Shown: in pieces, positions 1 to 22,214 of the stretch
Layout of the letters: every line of letters begins with the position of its first letter
Position numbering within the stretch: position 1 is the first letter of the stretch
Assembly: GCF_056712565.1 (NCBI RefSeq)
Contig: NZ_CM160072.1
Length of the DNA: 64,000 nt
Strand: one strand, 5' to 3'
Translations under genes and position numbers: made by a program
Notes under the pieces: generated by a model
What the model was told of the DNA's origin: nothing
Databases searched by the model: none
Seen by the model: only the letters and a program-made list of their open reading frames with translations

Positions 1-817
1 TCCAGAACGCCTGAAACGGATGAAAGAAGCATTCGACGCTGAGGCTGAGCAGACCATCACGCGCATGATTCGTAATGCACGCGCTGAAGCAGCCCATAAA
101 TTGCTGGGAATTACGCACGGTGAGATGACCAATGCTGTGACCACCGCTACGGGTATTGATACATATGCCCGTGATGATGCTGGCGAGTTAATGAAGAGCT
201 TCATGCTCTTCAAAACAACCCCATTTGCTGGATTTCGGCAACTTGTTAACAGAACACGGGATTTGGACACCGTTCCGGCCATTAAATTTCTGGCCTCATA
301 TATCGGGGGAACAACTCTTGCTGGTATGTTTGCGATCCAGATGAACAGTTTGTTAAATGGTAATGATCCGCTGGATATGACAAAACCAACCACATGGGTT
401 CAGGCTTTACTGAAAGGTGGTTCGTTCGGTATCTACGGTGATTTTATTTTCCAGGACCATACGCAATATGGCTCCAGCATCGGTGCCACTATGGGTGGCC
501 CTGTGTTGAGCTTTGCAGAGCAGTTAACAAAATTACTGATTACTAACCCACAGAAGGCTCTACAGGGTGAAGAAACATCATTCGGTGCCGATGCACTGAA
601 AACAGCCCGCATGATCACCCCATTCGCAAACCTGTGGTATGCGAAAGCGATAACCAATCACCTGATATTGCAACAACTTCAGGAGATGGCAAACCCTGGT
701 TACAATGATCGAGTAAGGGACCGCGCGCAACGGGAGTTCGACATAACGAGTTGGTGGGAACCGGGTGCTATTGCGCCACGTAGAGCACCGGATTTTGGAA
801 AGGCGGTAGGGGAATGA
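1..817 (+). CDS. Hypothetical protein, 5'-truncated at window edge (at least 272 aa visible); no family recognised; possible phage-structural or toxin-like C-terminal region
   Basis: Frame is open from position 2 to stop at 815-817; 265-aa ORF in track; stop overlaps next start (ATGA at 814-817); not part of K-12 dinD neighbourhood as I recall it. Confidence 0.5.
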   Translation, partial: PERLKRMKEAFDAEAEQTITRMIRNARAEAAHKLLGITHGEMTNAVTTATGIDTYARDDAGELMKSFMLFKTTPFAGFRQLVNRTRDLDTVPAIKFLASYIGGTTLAGMFAIQMNSLLNGNDPLDMTKPTTWVQALLKGGSFGIYGDFIFQDHTQYGSSIGATMGGPVLSFAEQLTKLLITNPQKALQGEETSFGADALKTARMITPFANLWYAKAITNHLILQQLQEMANPGYNDRVRDRAQREFDITSWWEPGAIAPRRAPDFGKAVGE

Positions 818-1155
818 AAAAGTTAAATACACCAACCAAAAGAGTTGGGGGGCTTCTGATTGTCATTGGAATTATATTTATACTTGCATCTATAATAGAA
901 ATATCAAGTAATGAGTTTGCTATTTCTGATAGTCCATATTATCGATCGCTAAATGCATATGATATTATTTTTATGTATTTAGAGCGAATTACAGATACTT
1001 TCATCATGACTCTAACATTTCAAACATGGAGTAGCCGTTTCAGTATATTAATGTTAGTAGGGTTTTGTTTATTTATTGTTGGTGTTCTTATTTCATATTT
1101 TTACGATGCTGGAATTGGCAGGGTTGTTAAGTGGATAAGAACGGGTAATTGGTGA
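814..1155 (+). CDS. Small AT-rich membrane protein (113 aa, 2-3 predicted hydrophobic helices), hypothetical; candidate immunity/accessory protein
   Basis: ORF in track; hydrophobic stretches GGLLIVIGIIFILASII and FSILMLVGFCLFIVGVLISYFY; visibly AT-rich compared with flanks; translationally coupled to upstream ORF. Confidence 0.5.
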   Translation: MKKLNTPTKRVGGLLIVIGIIFILASIIEISSNEFAISDSPYYRSLNAYDIIFMYLERITDTFIMTLTFQTWSSRFSILMLVGFCLFIVGVLISYFYDAGIGRVVKWIRTGNW

Positions 1156-1338: not shown

Positions 1339-1455
1339 ATGGTGTTGGGAGTGGTGGCAGGCTGGCCTTCTATTCTTTGGTGGATCATCTTTGCTATTGT
1401 CAGCGGTGGAATGTCATCATTTTTCGAATGGCTATCATTCAGAAAAAGAGCGTGA
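1339..1455 (+). CDS. Possible 38-aa hydrophobic peptide (MVLGVVAGWPSILWWIIFAIVSGGMSSFFEWLSFRKRA) with basic C-terminus; uncertain
   Basis: ATG at 1339 inside the 1261..1455 ORF; single predicted TM helix; immediately followed by terminator hairpin. Confidence 0.25.
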   Translation: MVLGVVAGWPSILWWIIFAIVSGGMSSFFEWLSFRKRA

Positions 1456-1463
1456 CATGTCAC

Positions 1464-1488
1464 AGGCCGCTTTCGCGGCCTTGTTTTT
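1464..1488 (+). terminator. Rho-independent terminator (stem AGGCCGC/GCGGCCT, loop TTTC, then TGTTTTT)
   Basis: Perfect 7-bp inverted repeat followed by T-run, read directly from sequence. Confidence 0.65.
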
Positions 1489-2129
1489 AACGAATGCCAC
1501 CGCCGCCCGGGCGGGAATCCGCAGATAAAAAAGCCCGCTGCACGGTTTTATTAATACTTATACCATTAGGATTGATCCTTCAATGGACAATCCTTCCATC
1601 GTGTGGCCAGCCATTCATATTCTTTGTCTTTTCTTCAGTACCGGCTTTGCATCTTCTACACCCTGAAAGATGTCGTTTTATGGTGTATCTGATGATTTAT
1701 TCCCTAACAATAGATATTCGAAAAATTAATCAGTTAAAACAATTATTTGGATAATTTCAGGTAAAAACTATCTTAATCTTCTGGTGGATCTCAATGCGCC
1801 GTGACGGTATCGGGATTAAGGGCGTGGATATTCGCGATATATGCCGCTACACCCCTCAACAGTAATAGATATGCGCTTTTCACGCTCTCCTTTCACTGCT
1901 GAGAACGGCAACAACGTGCCACAGGAACGCGCTGTAATCGATTCTGACGCACTTAATTGCGTTGGGTAATGGTTTGCCAGCCTGTGGGGGTAACTCTGTT
2001 TTATGAGGCTTTGGCTATAGTGCAAAAATGCACTTTGTCTTGCCTCTCAATTTGATGAGACTGGAACGACAACAGGACAGACCACCAGCAACAGTTACCG
2101 TATTCAGCCGTTCTGTGGCACCAGTGGAA

Positions 2130-2885
2130 CTATCCACCCCTGCTTTCAGCAATGTGTTTGCGGGTTATTTTGGGGCGTTTGCGGGTTATTTGGGATGTTT
2201 TGCGGGTTATGCGATGCTTGAATAATGAACAGTGCATTTTGCAACATATTGATACTAAAGAACAAAAAATAGTTAGCACACTAAGATAACCCGGTAACCC
2301 GCATAACCCGCACTGTTTTGTATATATATACGAAAAATTGCATTCAGGAGGGGGGATCGAAATCCCTACAACCCATTGCTTATGGGACCGCCGCCTCGTC
2401 AAATTTTTACACCCGCGAAATAAAAAATACTTCACGCTGGTGGGCATGATGCTGATATGAGAGGCTTCCATAACGCCACCATTCGAAACTATGCAAATCT
2501 GCATAGAAAAGGGGATGCCTGATACAATACCCTCGCCCGATAAAATCACACCGATAAACTCATCTGCCACGAGTAGAAAGAGCGAACGAACCCGATACGC
2601 AGTAATGCTGGTCGGGTCCAGCTTTTTAAGGCGGCTGTAGATATCAGGCCATCCGTGATCATCCACCAGCGTAATTGCTGAACGCTTTAAAAAAACGTGT
2701 ACATAAGGGTGTACATAATCAAAAACCGCATTAGAAAGAAACCAGATACAATGCGGCATTGAAGCCAACACTCTACAAACAGATCCAGAACATTGAATAA
2801 CTCGTAACGCCAATTCTTCCTTTTCAGCCTTCACAAATGCCGCCCACTCAAACAGAGCGGCATTTTTCCTCCCCGCAACATTCAA
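2130..2885 (-). CDS. Long open reading frame (251 codons, alternative start) divergent from dinD; hypothetical; may be real only in its 5' ~160 codons (about 2400-2885), distal part runs through the repeat array
   Basis: Open frame of 251 codons is unlikely by chance; no plus-strand ORF competes in 2226-3010; no family recognised. Confidence 0.3.
   Translation of the reverse strand: MNVAGRKNAALFEWAAFVKAEKEELALRVIQCSGSVCRVLASMPHCIWFLSNAVFDYVHPYVHVFLKRSAITLVDDHGWPDIYSRLKKLDPTSITAYRVRSLFLLVADEFIGVILSGEGIVSGIPFSMQICIVSNGGVMEASHISIMPTSVKYFLFRGCKNLTRRRSHKQWVVGISIPPPECNFSYIYTKQCGLCGLPGYLSVLTIFCSLVSICCKMHCSLFKHRITRKTSQITRKRPKITRKHIAESRGG
2157..2313. repeat. Iteron-like repeat array: three direct TTTGCGGGTTAT copies at 2157, 2178, 2199 (21-bp phase) and three inverted copies (ATAACCCGG / TAACCCGC / ATAACCCGCA) at 2286-2312, followed by AT-rich TGTATATATATAC
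   Basis: Exact repeats read from sequence; function (origin iterons, integrase arm sites or operator array) not determined. Confidence 0.6.
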
Positions 2886-2958
2886 TTCTGTTTTGCGTGC
2901 CTGCTCCAGATTTTGCGATGTTTTTTTGCCCAGCGCAGTGAGAACGTGAGATACTCAC

Positions 2959-2978
2959 AACTGTATATAAACACAGTT
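2959..2978. promoter_or_regulatory. LexA (SOS) box AACTGTATATAAACACAGTT upstream of dinD
   Basis: Matches CTGT-N8-ACAG consensus; dinD is a classical SOS gene; sits about 44 bp upstream of dinD ATG. Confidence 0.8.
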
Positions 2979-3021
2979 GTAAACTTACTTTCCTTGCAAT
3001 CGATATCATATGGAGTGGGCA

Positions 3022-3846
3022 ATGAACGAACATCATCAACCTTTTGAAGAAATACGGCATTATGGCACTGAAGGGCAAGAATTTTGGTCAGCGAGAGAAT
3101 TGGCACCGTTACTGGATTATCGGGACTGGCGCAATTTTCAAAAGGTACTGGCCCGCGCGACTCAAGCGTGCGAAGCCAGCAATCAAGCTGCATCTGACCA
3201 TTTCGTTGAAACCACCAAAATGGTTGTATTAGGTTCAGGGGCTCAACGAGAACTTGAAGATGTTCATCTCTCCCGCTATGCCTGTTACCTGGTAGTACAA
3301 AACGGCGACCCTGCGAAACCGGTTATTGCGGCAGGGCAAACTTATTTTGCTATCCAGACCCGACGGCAGGAGCTGGCTGACGATGAAGCTTTCAGGCAAC
3401 TTCGTGAAGACGAAAAGCGTCTTTTTCTGAGAAATGAGTTGAAAGAACATAACAAACAATTAGTTGAGGCAGCGCAGCAAGCTGGGGTAGCGACAGCTAT
3501 CGATTTCGCCATATTTCAGAATCATGGTTACCGGGGACTGTATGGTGGATTAGATCAGAAAGCCATCCATCAGCGGAAGGGGCTGAAAAAGAGTCAGAAG
3601 ATCCTGGATCATATGGGTTCAACAGAACTGGCGGCTAATCTCTTTCGAGCTACCCAAACAGAAGAAAAACTCAAGCGGGATGGCGTGAATTCAAAACAGC
3701 AAGCTAATACCACACACTTTGACGTGGGTCGCAAGGTGAGGCAAACCATTCAGGAACTTGGCGGAACCATGCCTGAGGAGTTGCCGACCCCGCAGGTCAG
3801 CATCAAGCAGTTGGAAAACAGTGTAAAAATTACAGAGAAGAAATAG
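3022..3846 (+). CDS. dinD: DNA damage-inducible protein D
   Basis: Translation MNEHHQPFEEIRHYGTEGQEFWSARELAPLL... recognised as DinD; preceded by LexA box. Confidence 0.9.
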   Translation: MNEHHQPFEEIRHYGTEGQEFWSARELAPLLDYRDWRNFQKVLARATQACEASNQAASDHFVETTKMVVLGSGAQRELEDVHLSRYACYLVVQNGDPAKPVIAAGQTYFAIQTRRQELADDEAFRQLREDEKRLFLRNELKEHNKQLVEAAQQAGVATAIDFAIFQNHGYRGLYGGLDQKAIHQRKGLKKSQKILDHMGSTELAANLFRATQTEEKLKRDGVNSKQQANTTHFDVGRKVRQTIQELGGTMPEELPTPQVSIKQLENSVKITEKK

Positions 3847-7663: not shown

Positions 7664-9772
7664 TTGTATCTGTTTGAAAGCCTGAATCAGCTGATTCAAA
7701 ACTACCTGCCGGAAGACCAAATCAAGCGTCTGCGGCAGGCGTATCTCGTTGCACGTGATGCTCACGAGGGGCAAACACGTTCAAGCGGTGAACCCTATAT
7801 CACGCACCCGGTGGCGGTTGCCTGCATTCTGGCCGAGATGAAACTCGACTATGAAACGCTGATGGCGGCGCTGCTGCATGATGTGATTGAAGATACACCC
7901 GCCACCTACCAGGACATGGAACAGCTTTTTGGTAAAAGCGTCGCCGAGCTGGTAGAGGGGGTGTCGAAACTTGATAAACTCAAGTTCCGCGATAAGAAAG
8001 AGGCGCAGGCCGAAAACTTTCGCAAGATGATTATGGCGATGGTGCAGGATATCCGCGTCATTCTCATCAAACTTGCCGACCGTACCCACAACATGCGCAC
8101 GCTGGGCTCACTTCGCCCGGACAAACGTCGCCGCATCGCCCGTGAAACTCTCGAAATATACAGCCCGCTGGCGCACCGTTTAGGTATCCACCACATTAAA
8201 ACCGAACTCGAGGAGCTGGGTTTTGAGGCGCTGTATCCCAACCGTTATCGCGTAATCAAAGAAGTGGTGAAAGCCGCGCGCGGCAACCGTAAAGAGATGA
8301 TCCAGAAGATTCTTTCTGAAATCGAAGGGCGTTTGCAGGAAGCGGGAATACCGTGCCGCGTCAGTGGTCGCGAAAAACATCTTTATTCGATTTACTGCAA
8401 AATGGTGCTCAAAGAGCAGCGTTTTCACTCAATCATGGACATCTACGCTTTCCGCGTGATCGTCAATGATTCTGACACCTGTTATCGCGTGCTGGGCCAG
8501 ATGCACAGCCTGTACAAGCCGCGTCCGGGCCGCGTGAAAGACTATATCGCCATTCCAAAAGCGAACGGCTATCAGTCTTTGCACACCTCGATGATTGGCC
8601 CGCACGGCGTGCCGGTTGAGGTCCAGATCCGTACCGAAGATATGGATCAGATGGCGGAGATGGGTGTTGCCGCGCACTGGGCTTATAAAGAGCACGGCGA
8701 AACCAGCACTACCGCGCAAATACGCGCCCAGCGCTGGATGCAAAGCCTGCTGGAGCTGCAACAGAGTGCCGGTAGCTCGTTTGAATTTATCGAGAGCGTT
8801 AAATCCGATCTCTTCCCGGATGAGATTTACGTTTTCACACCAGAAGGGCGCATTGTCGAACTGCCTGCCGGTGCAACGCCCGTCGACTTCGCTTATGCGG
8901 TGCATACCGATATCGGCCATGCCTGCGTGGGCGCACGCGTCGACCGCCAGCCTTACCCGCTGTCGCAGCCGCTTACTAGCGGTCAAACCGTTGAAATCAT
9001 TACCGCACCGGGTGCTCGCCCGAATGCCGCGTGGCTGAACTTTGTCGTCAGCTCGAAAGCGCGCGCCAAAATTCGTCAGTTGCTGAAAAACCTCAAGCGT
9101 GATGATTCTGTAAGCCTGGGCCGTCGTCTGCTCAACCATGCGTTGGGTGGTAGCCGTAAGCTCAATGAAATCCCGCAGGAAAATATTCAGCGCGAGCTGG
9201 ACCGCATGAAGCTGGCAACGCTTGACGATCTGCTGGCAGAAATCGGCCTTGGTAACGCAATGAGCGTGGTGGTCGCGAAAAATCTGCAACATGGGGACGC
9301 CTCCATTCCACCGGCAACCCAAAGTCACGGACATCTGCCCATTAAAGGTGCCGATGGCGTGCTGATCACCTTTGCGAAATGCTGCCGCCCAATTCCTGGC
9401 GACCCGATTATCGCCCACGTCAGCCCCGGTAAAGGTCTGGTGATCCACCATGAATCCTGCCGTAACATCCGTGGCTACCAGAAAGAGCCAGAGAAGTTTA
9501 TGGCTGTTGAATGGGATAAAGAGACGGCGCAGGAATTCATCACCGAAATCAAGGTGGAGATGTTCAATCATCAGGGCGCGCTGGCAAACCTGACGGCGGC
9601 AATTAACACCACGACCTCGAATATTCAAAGTTTGAATACGGAAGAGAAAGATGGTCGCGTCTATAGCGCCTTTATTCGTCTGACCGCCCGTGACCGTGTG
9701 CATCTGGCGAATATCATGCGCAAAATCCGCGTGATGCCAGACGTGATTAAAGTCACCCGAAACCGAAATTAA
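7664..9772 (+). CDS. spoT: Bifunctional (p)ppGpp synthase/hydrolase SpoT (TTG start)
   Basis: 702-aa ORF starting TTG at 7664; HD domain and ACT/TGS regions recognisable; synteny. Confidence 0.95.
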   Translation: MYLFESLNQLIQNYLPEDQIKRLRQAYLVARDAHEGQTRSSGEPYITHPVAVACILAEMKLDYETLMAALLHDVIEDTPATYQDMEQLFGKSVAELVEGVSKLDKLKFRDKKEAQAENFRKMIMAMVQDIRVILIKLADRTHNMRTLGSLRPDKRRRIARETLEIYSPLAHRLGIHHIKTELEELGFEALYPNRYRVIKEVVKAARGNRKEMIQKILSEIEGRLQEAGIPCRVSGREKHLYSIYCKMVLKEQRFHSIMDIYAFRVIVNDSDTCYRVLGQMHSLYKPRPGRVKDYIAIPKANGYQSLHTSMIGPHGVPVEVQIRTEDMDQMAEMGVAAHWAYKEHGETSTTAQIRAQRWMQSLLELQQSAGSSFEFIESVKSDLFPDEIYVFTPEGRIVELPAGATPVDFAYAVHTDIGHACVGARVDRQPYPLSQPLTSGQTVEIITAPGARPNAAWLNFVVSSKARAKIRQLLKNLKRDDSVSLGRRLLNHALGGSRKLNEIPQENIQRELDRMKLATLDDLLAEIGLGNAMSVVVAKNLQHGDASIPPATQSHGHLPIKGADGVLITFAKCCRPIPGDPIIAHVSPGKGLVIHHESCRNIRGYQKEPEKFMAVEWDKETAQEFITEIKVEMFNHQGALANLTAAINTTTSNIQSLNTEEKDGRVYSAFIRLTARDRVHLANIMRKIRVMPDVIKVTRNRN

Positions 9773-15585: not shown

Positions 15586-17295
15586 ATGAAATTTATTGGG
15601 AAGCTGCTTCTCTACATTCTCATCGCTCTGTTAGTGGTGATCGCTGGCCTCTATTTTCTTCTGCAAACTCGCTGGGGAGCAGAACATATCAGCGCATGGG
15701 TTTCCGAGAATAGCGACTATCATCTGGCCTTCGGGGCGATGGATCACCGTTTTTCCGCGCCATCTCATATCGTGCTGGAGAACGTCACGTTTGGCCGTGA
15801 TGGCCAGCCCGCGCCCCTGGTGGCAAAAAGTGTCGACATTGCGCTAAGCAGTCGGCAACTGACCGAACCACGCCATGTCGATACCATCCTGCTGGAAAAC
15901 GGGACGCTGAATCTCACCGACCAGACCGCGCCGCTACCGTTTAAAGCCGATCGTCTGCAACTGCGTGATATGGCGTTTAATAGCCCGAATAGCGAATGGA
16001 AACTGAGCGCGCAGCGGGTAAATGGCGGCGTGGTTCCGTGGTCACCAGAAGCCGGTAAAGTGCTGGGTACGAAGGCACAGATTCAGTTTAGTGCCGGATC
16101 GCTTTCGCTCAATGATGTTCCTGCCACCAATGTACTGATTGAAGGCAGTATTGATAACGATCGCGTTACGCTGACTAACCTGGGTGCCGACATCGCCCGC
16201 GGGACATTAACCGGAAACGCGCAGCGTAACGCTGACGGCAGCTGGCAAGTGGAAAACCTGCGCATGGCGGATATCCGTCTACAAAGCGAAAAATCGCTAA
16301 CCGACTTCTTTGCACCATTACGCTCTGTCCCGTCGTTGCAGATTGGTCGCCAGGAAGTCATCGACGCTCGTTTGCAAGGTCCGGACTGGGCGGTGGCCGA
16401 CCTCGATCTCAGCTTGCGCAACATGACCTTCAGTAAAGATGACTGGCAGACACAGGAAGGTAAACTGTCGATGAACGCCAGCGAGTTTATTTATGGCTCG
16501 CTGCATTTATTTGATCCGATTATAAACGCGGAATTTTCCCCGCAGGGCGTAGCACTGCGCCAGTTCACCAGCCGCTGGGAAGGGGGTATGGTCAGAACGT
16601 CAGGAAACTGGCAACGCGACGGGAAAACGCTGATCCTCGATGATGCGGCAATTGCCGGACTGGAATATACCTTGCCCAAAAACTGGCAACAGTTGTGGAT
16701 GGAAACGACACCCGGTTGGTTAAACAGCCTGCAACTGAAGAGATTTAGCGCCAGCCGCAATCTGATCATTGATATCGACCCTGACTTCCCGTGGCAGCTC
16801 ACCGCGCTCGATGGTTACGGTGCCAATCTGACGCTGGTTACCGATCATAAATGGGGCGTCTGGAGTGGCTCGGCGAATCTGAATGCCGCCGCCGCAACGT
16901 TTAATCGTGTTGATGTCCGTCGTCCGTCGCTGGCGCTAACTGCCAACAGCAGCACGGTGAATATCAGCGAACTGAGTGCATTTACTGAAAAAGGCATTCT
17001 GGAAGCCACCGCCAGTGTTTCACAAACGCCACAACGTCAGACCCATATCAGCCTGAATGGACGCGGTGTGCCGGTGAATATTTTGCAACATTGGGGATGG
17101 CCTGAATTACCGTTGACTGGCGACGGCAATATTCAGCTTACCGCCAGTGGCGATATTCAGGTCAATGTCCCGCTGAAACCTACGGTTAGCGGGCAATTGC
17201 ATGCCGTGAATGCCGCAAAGCAGCAAGTGACTCAAACCATGAATGCGGGCGTAGTTTCCAGTGGTGAAGTTACGTCGACGGAGCCGGTGCAGTAA
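15586..17295 (+). CDS. yicH: AsmA-family protein YicH
   Basis: MKFIGKLLLYILIALLVVIAGLYFLL N-terminal anchor; size about 569 aa; synteny. Confidence 0.85.
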   Translation: MKFIGKLLLYILIALLVVIAGLYFLLQTRWGAEHISAWVSENSDYHLAFGAMDHRFSAPSHIVLENVTFGRDGQPAPLVAKSVDIALSSRQLTEPRHVDTILLENGTLNLTDQTAPLPFKADRLQLRDMAFNSPNSEWKLSAQRVNGGVVPWSPEAGKVLGTKAQIQFSAGSLSLNDVPATNVLIEGSIDNDRVTLTNLGADIARGTLTGNAQRNADGSWQVENLRMADIRLQSEKSLTDFFAPLRSVPSLQIGRQEVIDARLQGPDWAVADLDLSLRNMTFSKDDWQTQEGKLSMNASEFIYGSLHLFDPIINAEFSPQGVALRQFTSRWEGGMVRTSGNWQRDGKTLILDDAAIAGLEYTLPKNWQQLWMETTPGWLNSLQLKRFSASRNLIIDIDPDFPWQLTALDGYGANLTLVTDHKWGVWSGSANLNAAAATFNRVDVRRPSLALTANSSTVNISELSAFTEKGILEATASVSQTPQRQTHISLNGRGVPVNILQHWGWPELPLTGDGNIQLTASGDIQVNVPLKPTVSGQLHAVNAAKQQVTQTMNAGVVSSGEVTSTEPVQ

Positions 17296-18019: not shown

Positions 18020-18932
18020 TGGCTTCTCCGTTGCGCATAGCAAGCCAGGCAGCGCCACGCATTCCGCTACTGTCGCCGTGCTGTGCTTTTACAATGGGAG
18101 TGGTGAATTGATCGGTGAAAACCAGTGGAGCGACTTCTGCGTTCAGATCGGTGATAAGCAGTTCCACATTCGAAAGCCCGCCGCCGATCACAATCACGCC
18201 AGGGTCAACAACATTAACGATGGTTGCCAGCGTGCGGGCAAGCTGTTGGCGAAAACGTGCCACCTGCTGCATGGCACAAGCATCACCACGTTGTGCCAGG
18301 GTGACAATCGCCGCAGGAGTGAGCAAGTTACCAGTCATCTGTTGATAGCGTTCACTAAAACCGCTGCCGGAAACAAACGACTCCACGCAGTTGTGTTTGC
18401 CGCAATAGCAACTGACTGATGGACCATCTTCCTGCTCCGTATAGCCTGGCAACGTGATATGACCGCATTCGGCAGCATTTCCCCAGGCCCCTATAAACGG
18501 TCGTTGCTTGATGGCAATGCCACCGCCGCAGCCCGTACCAAGCGTAATACCAAATACCACGTCATAATCTTGCCCGGCACCGTCGCAAGCTTCTGATAGC
18601 GCGAAACAGTTACCATCATTGGCTATCACCACCGGTTGCCCAAGCAATTGCTGCAAATCAGCCTGTAACGCATGACCGTTAATCACCTGAATATTCGCGT
18701 TTTTAATCAGGCCAGTGAGTGGCGAGATACTGCCGGGTAAGGCGATCCCTGTCAGCATCGGTCGTTGAACGTCCCGCCTAATCTGCTCGATAAGCGCCAC
18801 AACGCATGAGACAAATTGTTGATATGTCGACTTTTGCGTCGGGCAGCGGTAACGGCGAATCTCCCAGCCATGCGCATCCATGACAACGGCGGCGATTTTG
18901 GTCCCACCAATATCCAACCCCAGATAGTGCAT
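18000..18932 (-). CDS. ROK-family sugar kinase
   Basis: MHYLGLDIGGTKIAAVVMD N-terminal ROK/ATPase motif; Cys-rich zinc motif (CYCGKHNC). Confidence 0.8.
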   Translation of the reverse strand: MHYLGLDIGGTKIAAVVMDAHGWEIRRYRCPTQKSTYQQFVSCVVALIEQIRRDVQRPMLTGIALPGSISPLTGLIKNANIQVINGHALQADLQQLLGQPVVIANDGNCFALSEACDGAGQDYDVVFGITLGTGCGGGIAIKQRPFIGAWGNAAECGHITLPGYTEQEDGPSVSCYCGKHNCVESFVSGSGFSERYQQMTGNLLTPAAIVTLAQRGDACAMQQVARFRQQLARTLATIVNVVDPGVIVIGGGLSNVELLITDLNAEVAPLVFTDQFTTPIVKAQHGDSSGMRGAAWLAMRNGEANETFTN

Positions 18933-19920: not shown

Positions 19921-20772
19921 TCAGGCTTTGCCGATAGAGCCGCTCGCCTGTAAATACGGTGTAATCGCTTCTTCGAAGGCCAGTTCCATAGCTTTCAGCG
20001 CGTCCACCAGTTCAATGGATATATCGTGACAGAGGGTATGCAGGAGCGCGGATTTCCCCCGTTCAAAAATGGCCGCCCCCACGTTGATTTTTGCTACCCC
20101 CAGCGTCGTACAGAGCTGGAGCTGATCGAACGGCGTACCGCTACCGCCATGTAATGCCAGAGGCACGCTCGAGCAGCGCGAAATCTCCGCCAGACGCTGA
20201 AAATCAATAGCAGGTACAACGCCAGGCGCGTACATGCCGTGCGCCGTGCCTACCGAGACGGCCAGTAGATCAATGCCTGTCTGCGCGATAAACGGTTCCA
20301 CATCAGTGGGTTGCGTCATCAGGTCTGCATTGGCGGCCTGGTCGTAACGCGGCGCATCTGCCAGATGGCCCAGTTCGCCTTCCACGCAGAGCTGCGCGCT
20401 GGCGGCGAGTTCCACCACCGCCCTGGTCTGGCGCACGTTTTCCTCCAGGGGAAAAGCAGAAGCATCAATCATTAATCCGCTGAAACCAGCACGAAACGCC
20501 TGACGAATACAGTCCGGATTTTTGCCATGATCAAGCGCCAGAGCGACCGGTACTGAGGCAGATTCCGCGAGCGTTTTAACCACTGCCGCCGCGACGGGTG
20601 CAGGAAAATGCGCCAGATGCCCCTGATAGAGATTGAGAATGATCGGAGCGCGATTCTTCTCCGCCACGCGGATAGCTGCGTGAGCACTTTCCAGATTCAT
20701 ACAGTTGATCGCCAGCAAGGCGTAATGTTCATGCCAGGCTTTCATCACCATACTTTTCATATCGGCAAACAT
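19921..20772 (-). CDS. Class II ketose-1,6-bisphosphate aldolase (GatY/KbaY-like), paralog 1
   Basis: 283 aa; LALDHG and EGELG motifs. Confidence 0.8.
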   Translation of the reverse strand: MFADMKSMVMKAWHEHYALLAINCMNLESAHAAIRVAEKNRAPIILNLYQGHLAHFPAPVAAAVVKTLAESASVPVALALDHGKNPDCIRQAFRAGFSGLMIDASAFPLEENVRQTRAVVELAASAQLCVEGELGHLADAPRYDQAANADLMTQPTDVEPFIAQTGIDLLAVSVGTAHGMYAPGVVPAIDFQRLAEISRCSSVPLALHGGSGTPFDQLQLCTTLGVAKINVGAAIFERGKSALLHTLCHDISIELVDALKAMELAFEEAITPYLQASGSIGKA

Positions 20773-21899: not shown

Positions 21900-22214
21900 T
21901 CATTTGTTTCCCAGTGATTTTTCGACCTTTTCAAGAAATTGAACGGGCGATTTAATGACGATCTCTGTCTTTACTCGCACAATACGTTTATTGGTGAAGC
22001 GTTCTTCTCCTTTTATTTTCACATCTACAGCAAGAATCACGACGTCAGCAGCAGAGATATCTGCCGCCTGTAATTCATTTTCTGTACCAATGGTTCCCTG
22101 GGTTTCAACTTTAATGGTATGGCCCAGAGCTTTTGCTCCTTTGATTAACTTTTCACGAGCAATATAGGTATGAGCAATACCCGCCGTACAGGCGGCAACA
22201 CAGACAATATTCAT
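21900..22214 (-). CDS. PTS fructose-family EIIB
   Basis: 104 aa; N-terminal CVAACTAGIAHTY phospho-cysteine motif. Confidence 0.8.
   Translation of the reverse strand: MNIVCVAACTAGIAHTYIAREKLIKGAKALGHTIKVETQGTIGTENELQAADISAADVVILAVDVKIKGEERFTNKRIVRVKTEIVIKSPVQFLEKVEKSLGNK

Follow-up and report, generated by a model that had tools for sequence, protein, structure and literature searches.

Phage P4 replicates from a bipartite origin, ori plus crr, which is bound by its alpha primase-helicase, and in plasmid P1 the incA locus is an auxiliary iteron locus relative to oriR/incC. In the phage-inducible chromosomal islands (PICIs) and the Staphylococcus aureus pathogenicity islands (SaPIs), the origin consists of iterons immediately 3' of rep, arranged as two opposed sets around an AT-rich centre (PMC6092414; PMC9371898). 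The SaPI Reps are self-loading helicases that bind their iterons through a C-terminal winged helix (PMC9371898), and for EcCICFT073 a pri-rep-ori replicon with iterons of the TGTCTACC type was demonstrated to be functional by its authors (PMC6092414), in a work that also mentions P4 alpha and crr. Here we analyse a stretch of 64,000 nucleotides of Escherichia coli chromosome (contig NZ_CM160072.1, assembly GCF_056712565.1; hereafter the window), which shares 99.98% identity with strain ExPEC XM across a compared 23 kb and carries an iteron array at the right end of a PICI-type phage satellite of ~20 kb inserted between yicC and dinD. This array, hereafter unit B, is probably a replication-origin unit of the satellite, with iterons that would most likely be bound by the island's own DUF927 Pri-Rep.

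The six iterons of unit B form two opposed sets (Table 1). In the spaced set, exact copies of TTTGCGGGTTAT occupy 2157-2168, 2178-2189 and 2199-2210, so the start-to-start distances are 21 and 21 bp, exactly as stated in a preliminary description of the locus made from its letters. The three packed inverted copies that the same description placed about 75 bp past the direct set are also present, as ATAACCCGG at 2286-2294, with one mismatch, and TAACCCGCA at 2295-2303 and 2304-2312. Its mention of an adjacent AT-rich stretch needs correction in part: a (TA)n tract does follow the array, with TGTATATATATAC at 2319-2331 after the inverted set, but it is the spacer separating the sets that forms the main AT-rich element and includes the most AT-rich part (GC content of 0.28 at 2230-2289), and the (TA)n tract is the smaller one. 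Over both strands of the window, the exact 8-mer GCGGGTTA/TAACCCGC occurs 7 times, compared with an expectation of ~2 for any 8-mer in 128 kb, and 5 of these 7 copies fall inside the 153-bp array. The clustering is not due to chance. Two patterns had been named as reasons to abandon the idea, scattering of the motif and a place within a conserved coding sequence; the motif is not scattered across the window, and the array lies outside any conserved coding sequence. The array is real and non-coding.

Comparison with related units revealed which parts of this anatomy are kept. The length of the spacer is 84-86 bp start-to-start across all of them, and the tight set contains from 2 to 6 copies. 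All 25 of the distinct right-end cassettes, and 12 of the 15 tandem units, have a match to the consensus of the integration host factor (IHF) at one and the same place; its N positions are variable (10 variants), and shuffled spacers matched the consensus in 2% of trials. The tail of the unit is invariant, except for the length of (TA)n, in the five cassettes found by BLAST, and it also trails B in most tandem units, with no cos coming after it, being diverged in the O157-type units.

A second cluster of the same iteron was found beside the rep gene of the island. In the 41-kb locus that contains the island (L001, whose position 18302 is window position 1), the exact 10-mer TGCGGGTTAT clusters at two places only, at 9561-9685 and in unit B, at 20460-20613 (window 2159-2312). 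The first of these, unit A, starts 24 bp past the stop codon of the DUF927 gene, upstream of ssb, and mirrors B: its tight set has two copies, its AT-rich spacer is 43 nt long, and its four inverted copies are spaced at 11, 21 and 21 bp. Judged by its placement, unit A occupies the canonical origin position of PICIs and SaPIs. The DUF927 Rep (WP_032273012) matches Pfam DUF927 (E=3.6e-46) and PHROG 1139 'DNA primase' (E=2e-174), its PHROG families being primase or primase/helicase, and its helicase core matches a chain of solved structure, 8tch, named 'Pathogenicity island protein' (E=1.7e-14); the island has in this protein the cognate helicase-initiator that belongs to a PICI/SaPI origin.

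Related loci were collected by two exact-pattern scans of IMG/VR, to which further E. coli loci were added. In 35 of the 36 IMG/VR loci found by the A-type iteron pattern, a DUF927 gene (82-100% identical) ends ~25-45 bp from A, the exception being L040, with neither cluster nor Rep match. Fourteen loci, namely the capsid-forming PICI of O157:H7 at the roxA-phoQ site (L002) and 13 others, carry A and B as a tandem directly behind rep, with the two units oriented to each other as they are in the split form. This tandem array is two-fold symmetric: tight, AT-rich, phased, then phased, AT-rich, tight. At least 14 elements, the present island included, have B at their far right end, apart from A. 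The repeats themselves vary with the initiator. Another yicC-dinD island (L072) encodes a Rep of the TOPRIM-DUF927 type, with 62% identity across residues 147-705, and it keeps the symmetric post-rep architecture with every repeat being GAGACAACA; thus, a different Rep comes with a different iteron in an unchanged design. Post-rep iterons are AAGTGGGGA or AAGTGAGG with RepA-type Reps (L003, L006), TGTCTACC with primase-family Reps (L005, EcCICFT073), and TGTTCACC, the P4 type I iteron, beside a different Rep in L056 and L061 only. The iteron GCGGGTTA goes with the clade of 82-100% identical DUF927 Reps, with the exception of distal B units in non-DUF927 elements. The anatomy of the array, its linkage to DUF927 and the change of iteron with the Rep variant are established by these comparisons. 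The post-rep linkage of A and B, together with the Rep-matched change of iteron, suggests that GCGGGTTA is the iteron of the DUF927 clade and that B is an origin unit. Among the functions proposed in the preliminary description, satellite replication-origin iterons are therefore supported, by the mirror cluster directly 3' of the DUF927 Pri-Rep, by the tandem relatives and by the Rep-matched iterons.

From this arrangement we infer Rep binding, IHF binding and origin activity in the following way. By analogy with the SaPI Reps, Rep hexamers would bind the two iteron sets, IHF would bend the AT-rich spacer, and the AT-rich DNA or the (TA)n tract would melt, with the helicase loading itself. Adjacent A and B, as found in many relatives, may constitute one two-fold symmetric origin, the halves of which would be split in the present island. 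Unit B can best be understood as half of an origin bound by Rep and, as the halves are split here, it could serve either as an additional origin or as the cis partner of a distant A, like P4 crr to ori.

With the described PICI and SaPI origins the array shares the opposed iteron sets around an AT-rich region (PMC6092414; PMC9371898), a satellite-encoded helicase-initiator and an iteron specific for the Rep variant; unit A, and B in the 14 tandem relatives, also lie immediately 3' of rep. The B of the window differs in being at the int-distal end next to cos, 10.9 kb from rep. Further differences are that the full origin of the DUF927 family appears to be a mirror-symmetric pair and that B is also conserved beside unrelated Reps. 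In the EcCICFT073 replicon, the tested Rep is of the primase family and works with TGTCTACC, whereas here the Rep is of the DUF927 type. The two separated clusters of the same iteron in L001, direct and inverted, several kb apart and with one of them beside a primase-helicase gene, resemble ori and crr of P4. However, the PHROG, Pfam and PDB matches of the initiator are to a DUF927/SaPI-Rep-like helicase, not to alpha, and the iteron is GCGGGTTA instead of TGTTCACC. With P1 incA the likeness is that of an extra cluster of initiator iterons outside the minimal origin, provided that Rep does bind B; in contrast to incA-like loci, which are plain direct repeats, B has a complete origin-unit architecture.

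Several observations weigh against B being an origin unit served by the island's own Rep. Unit B is far downstream of the DUF927 gene (L001 9537 versus 20460), with rep outside the window, and a place immediately 3' of rep is found for A and for the tandem B units but not for this B. Cassettes with six perfect B iterons are present in five elements with a non-DUF927 Rep (L003, L005, L006, L056 and L061), whose own iterons are located next to rep only, so the resident Rep cannot explain the conservation of B there. Some DUF927 loci show cluster A alone in the available DNA, which implies that B may be dispensable. One of the six iterons in the window is mismatched, the first inverted copy, CCGGGTTAT. 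Finally, a DNA-binding domain in the C-terminus of the Rep was not demonstrated by an AlphaFold model or by a profile search against PDB sequences, which returned nothing significant; the model of this region had low confidence (predicted local distance difference test score, pLDDT, of 48.8) and showed a helix-helix-hairpin topology only.

The occurrence of B beside unrelated Reps is best considered together with its neighbor. Unit B and a cos-like site that starts ~35 bp to the right of the array form a cassette of ~400 bp, common to PICIs whose surrounding sequences are otherwise different, as revealed by pairwise blastn between the window and L003, L005, L006, L007, L022, L033, L043, L044 and L056. 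The phiP27 cos region lies between HNH and terS of this Stx2e phage, and the window matches it in the same orientation. The annotated 10-nt phiP27 cos is CGCCCGCCCC, and window positions 2389-2397 read CG-CCGCCTC, with a 1-nt deletion and one substitution; the cassette of L003 carries the phiP27 cos sequence exactly. Across the five BLAST-found cassettes, 47 of the 48 columns in iterons do not vary, compared with 61 of the 105 in spacers (Fisher p=6e-8), and the only iteron column that varies does so through the window copy. Because the IMG/VR cassette pattern included two iterons and the tail, only the BLAST-found set is unbiased for conservation. Such near-invariance suggests either that B is under selection in which the resident Rep plays no part or that the cassette has been exchanged often and recently; purifying selection acting on the iterons would account for the pattern, although recent exchange could mimic it. 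A comparison of genome counts (448 versus ~326) as a way to infer 'orphan' cassettes was dropped, as about one third of the 448 matches are to the cos part only.

One explanation of these data is that B and cos form a portable replicate-and-package module that works independently of the resident Rep, either with a DUF927 Rep acting in trans, supplied by a co-resident or incoming PICI or capsid-forming PICI, or with a host or helper factor that aids cos. We consider this unlikely, though it has several observations in its favor: in the five elements named above, whose Reps are RepA-type, primase-type or P4-alpha-like, the six iterons of the B next to cos are all perfect; L003 and L006 show differences in the spacer columns and none in the iteron columns (alignment inspected by eye); the cos part exists in at least three variants among the cassettes while B is constant; and the genome of strain SA53-3, the host of L003, has three places that match the array query. 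Against it, the genomes of L005 and L006 have one array-query match each, no common protein was found to be encoded by all the B-carrying islands, and recent exchange of the cassette between PICIs could leave the same trace as selection. Moreover, in L002 unit B is at ~16006-16137 and cos at ~21980-22080, and this separation of several kb (~6) in a tandem element indicates that B needs no cos.

Less probable still is that B is a non-functional relic, half of a former tandem origin that hitchhikes ~35 bp away from an essential cos. The resemblance of cluster A alone to a complete PICI origin, the loci with A only, and the mutated iteron and altered cos core of the window copy would agree with such a fate. 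A relic would not be expected to have iterons so much better conserved than its spacers, or to keep the IHF consensus in every one of the 25 cassettes despite the variable N positions; and in the L007-type cassettes the cos-like part has fallen to ~75% identity while B has six perfect iterons.

We regard it as very unlikely that the array is primarily an operator, at which Rep or another regulator bound to the tight set would control a rightward (TA)n promoter of the downstream operon seen in tandem elements. Iteron plasmids commonly combine origin and operator roles, and the tight set adjoins the invariant CTGTTTTG(TA)nCGAAAAATTG, which in the tandem elements stands ~20 bp upstream of the next gene start. 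However, a promoter scan of 2100-2345 revealed no sigma-70-like site, downstream of the array in the window there are only cos and attR, and an operator role would supplement the origin role rather than replace it. The multi-site operator named in the preliminary description may hold as a secondary role, with nothing specific in its favor.

Hardly credible, finally, is that the array consists of arm-type integrase or excisionase sites, as had also been suggested, or is part of a protein-coding gene: its phased repeats are indeed near the int-distal end, but the attR core at 2780-2800 leaves them 470-640 bp inside that end, no copy occurs near attL or int, both att arms are occupied by GTGTACATAA repeats, and the array is identical across four integrases and sites (yicC-dinD, tRNA-Pro, cspD-clpS and a prophage terL); the 251-aa hypothetical protein that the Prokaryotic Genome Annotation Pipeline (PGAP) draws over the array on the minus strand in some genomes (2130-2885) has a TTG start and crosses the attR junction into chromosomal DNA, the cassettes differ by 1-2-nt indels, and neither this frame nor a 65-aa plus-strand one has a PHROG family, so that the PGAP prediction is probably not a gene.

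Other readings were tried and rejected. The PICI cosB is recognised by Rpp-TerS (PMC6739421), and both it and lambda cosB, with its R sites and IHF site I1, combine repeated sites with an IHF-type site near cos, as the array does. The array differs in lying on the HNH side of the phiP27-aligned cos, not on the terS side where cosB repeats belong, in being ~6 kb from cos in tandem elements, and in having a cos of the phiP27/HK97 type instead of the lambda type. The idea of a minus-strand cosN of the lambda type at ~2385-2400, to which the array would be the cosB, was discarded, as there is no cosQ motif and the region aligns on the plus strand to phiP27 cos. Mimicry of a helper origin was discarded in the case of phiP27, as GCGGGTTA forms no cluster in its early region, where 15 scattered one-mismatch matches compare with 10.5 expected; no close DUF927 Rep was found in the true coliphages of the phage collection. 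The option of a plasmid origin did not survive a blastn search of the array against 72,556 plasmids, which gave no match. A structured RNA was rejected as well, since Rfam models over 1400-3100 produced only two sub-threshold chance matches outside the array. A literature search for the iteron string retrieved unrelated primer sequences only, and a contig scan for the triple phased arrangement was uninformative, its results being unrelated repeats from other phyla and none from a species representative of Enterobacterales.

Table 1. Positions in the window of unit B, its cassette and the right end of the island.
Feature	Position	Strand	Remarks
Three direct iterons, TTTGCGGGTTAT, core GCGGGTTA	2157-2210	+	'Spaced' set of unit B, 21-bp phase
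AT-rich spacer between the iteron sets, 75 nt	2211-2285		Candidate region for melting and bending
IHF-consensus site WATCARNNNNTTR (TATCAATATGTTG on the minus strand)	2242-2254	-	Mid-spacer; consensus match
Three inverted iterons, tightly packed	2286-2312	-	'Tight' set of unit B, 8-9-bp spacing
Conserved tail of unit B, CTGTTTTG-(TA)n-CGAAAAATTG	2313-2340	+	Candidate unwinding element or promoter-like tract
phiP27/HK97-type cos-like site	2347-2428	+	86% identity to annotated phiP27 cos region
Unit B + cos cassette, ~400 bp	2081-2475	+	79-85% identity to right ends of different PICIs
Two GTGTACATAA repeats	2697-2718 (2697-2706, 2709-2718)	+	Similar repeats by attL/int, L001 1084-1140
attR core CAGATCCAGAACATTGAATAA	2780-2800	+	Three-way alignment with the empty K-12 yicC-dinD site and L001 attL

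The comparison of occupied and empty sites that had been proposed for finding the island boundaries was made with K-12 and places the right boundary at the attR core, beyond which follows chromosomal sequence upstream of dinD. Among 5,426 complete genomes, only 21 contain the whole of this island junction. The yicC-dinD site has been published as that of the PICI EcCIRM13514 (PMC6092414 Table S1). Genes of the island are, in order, those for a tyrosine integrase, an AlpA-like helix-turn-helix protein, Rha, AntA/B, BRO-N, an Icd-like protein, DUF4222, the 708-aa DUF927 protein, a single-stranded DNA-binding protein (SSB), ProQ/FinO, PerC and three large proteins; this order is that of Gram-negative PICIs. 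The GTGTACATAA repeats at both att ends are more likely to be the integrase arm-type sites.

The three large cargo proteins, of 843, 686 and 918 aa (L001 11771-19118, the C-terminus of the last one being encoded at window 20-817), match phrog_992 (head protein/transglycosylase-containing), phrog_1145 (unknown) and phrog_684 (virion structural protein), and PADLOC gave no defence model for any of them. They look like internal virion or ejection proteins, an unusual cargo in a PICI without capsid or terminase genes. Two small hydrophobic open reading frames of 113 and 96 aa (window 814-1155 and 1238-1528) follow the last large cargo gene and are annotated as hypothetical proteins in ExPEC XM. 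A 51-bp patch at window 1794-1844, which many PICIs have with 84-89% conservation at a distance of between a few hundred bp and 1.5 kb upstream of B, corresponds to residues 44-59 (MRRDGIELNGVDMRDI) of a hypothetical PICI protein of 93 aa, of which L003 and L005 have intact copies; as only this fragment is present in the window, it is likely a gene remnant. Between cos and attR, ~70 bp at window 2558-2628 are 83% identical to part of P1 rlfB / P7 rapB.

Some features of the related islands were also recorded. In strain C51, two tandem copies of dinD follow the yicC-dinD island that encodes the TOPRIM-DUF927 Rep (L072 13556-15557). L007 (3650-18400) is a capsid-forming PICI with a DUF927 Rep inside terL of an HK97-like prophage, a helper-embedded configuration described in PMC10111431; it has A after rep, B with a diverged cos-like segment at its right end, and its own cos between HNH and terS. 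At L056 8800-9100, and also in L061, numerous copies of the type I iteron of phage P4, CTGTTCACC, come after a primase-family Rep, and the GCGGGTTA unit B plus cos is still found at the right end of both. The DUF927, RepA-type and primase-family Reps have in common an N-terminal domain of ~150 aa, with 37-75% identity and no Pfam match (L001 7411-7860; L003 7473-7940; L005 11236-11724), which is shuffled independently of the helicase part. This domain was considered as the binder of B and rejected, as it is only 37-75% identical between elements with identical iterons and EcCICFT073 carries the domain yet has no B.

The kind of feature described here is known; what is new is the split of a predicted mirror-symmetric origin, and the conservation of a cassette of origin unit and cos beside unrelated initiators. 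PICI origins have so far been described as a single iteron region right after rep. For the DUF927 family, our results suggest the addition that the full origin is a mirror-symmetric pair of units, and that this pair can split and leave one unit beside the packaging site. The conserved B beside unrelated Reps raises the question of whether satellites borrow each other's initiators. It is doubtful, though conceivable, that the cassette is a selected and exchangeable module, replicable by a DUF927-type Rep in trans and packageable by phiP27/HK97-type terminases. If this were true, it would amount to replication piracy of one satellite on another, by means of the Rep of a co-resident PICI or of a capsid-forming PICI, and it would explain the perfect iterons in satellites whose own Rep recognises unrelated ones. 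Such borrowing of initiators would then affect the amplification and spread of islands that carry virulence and phage-interference cargo.

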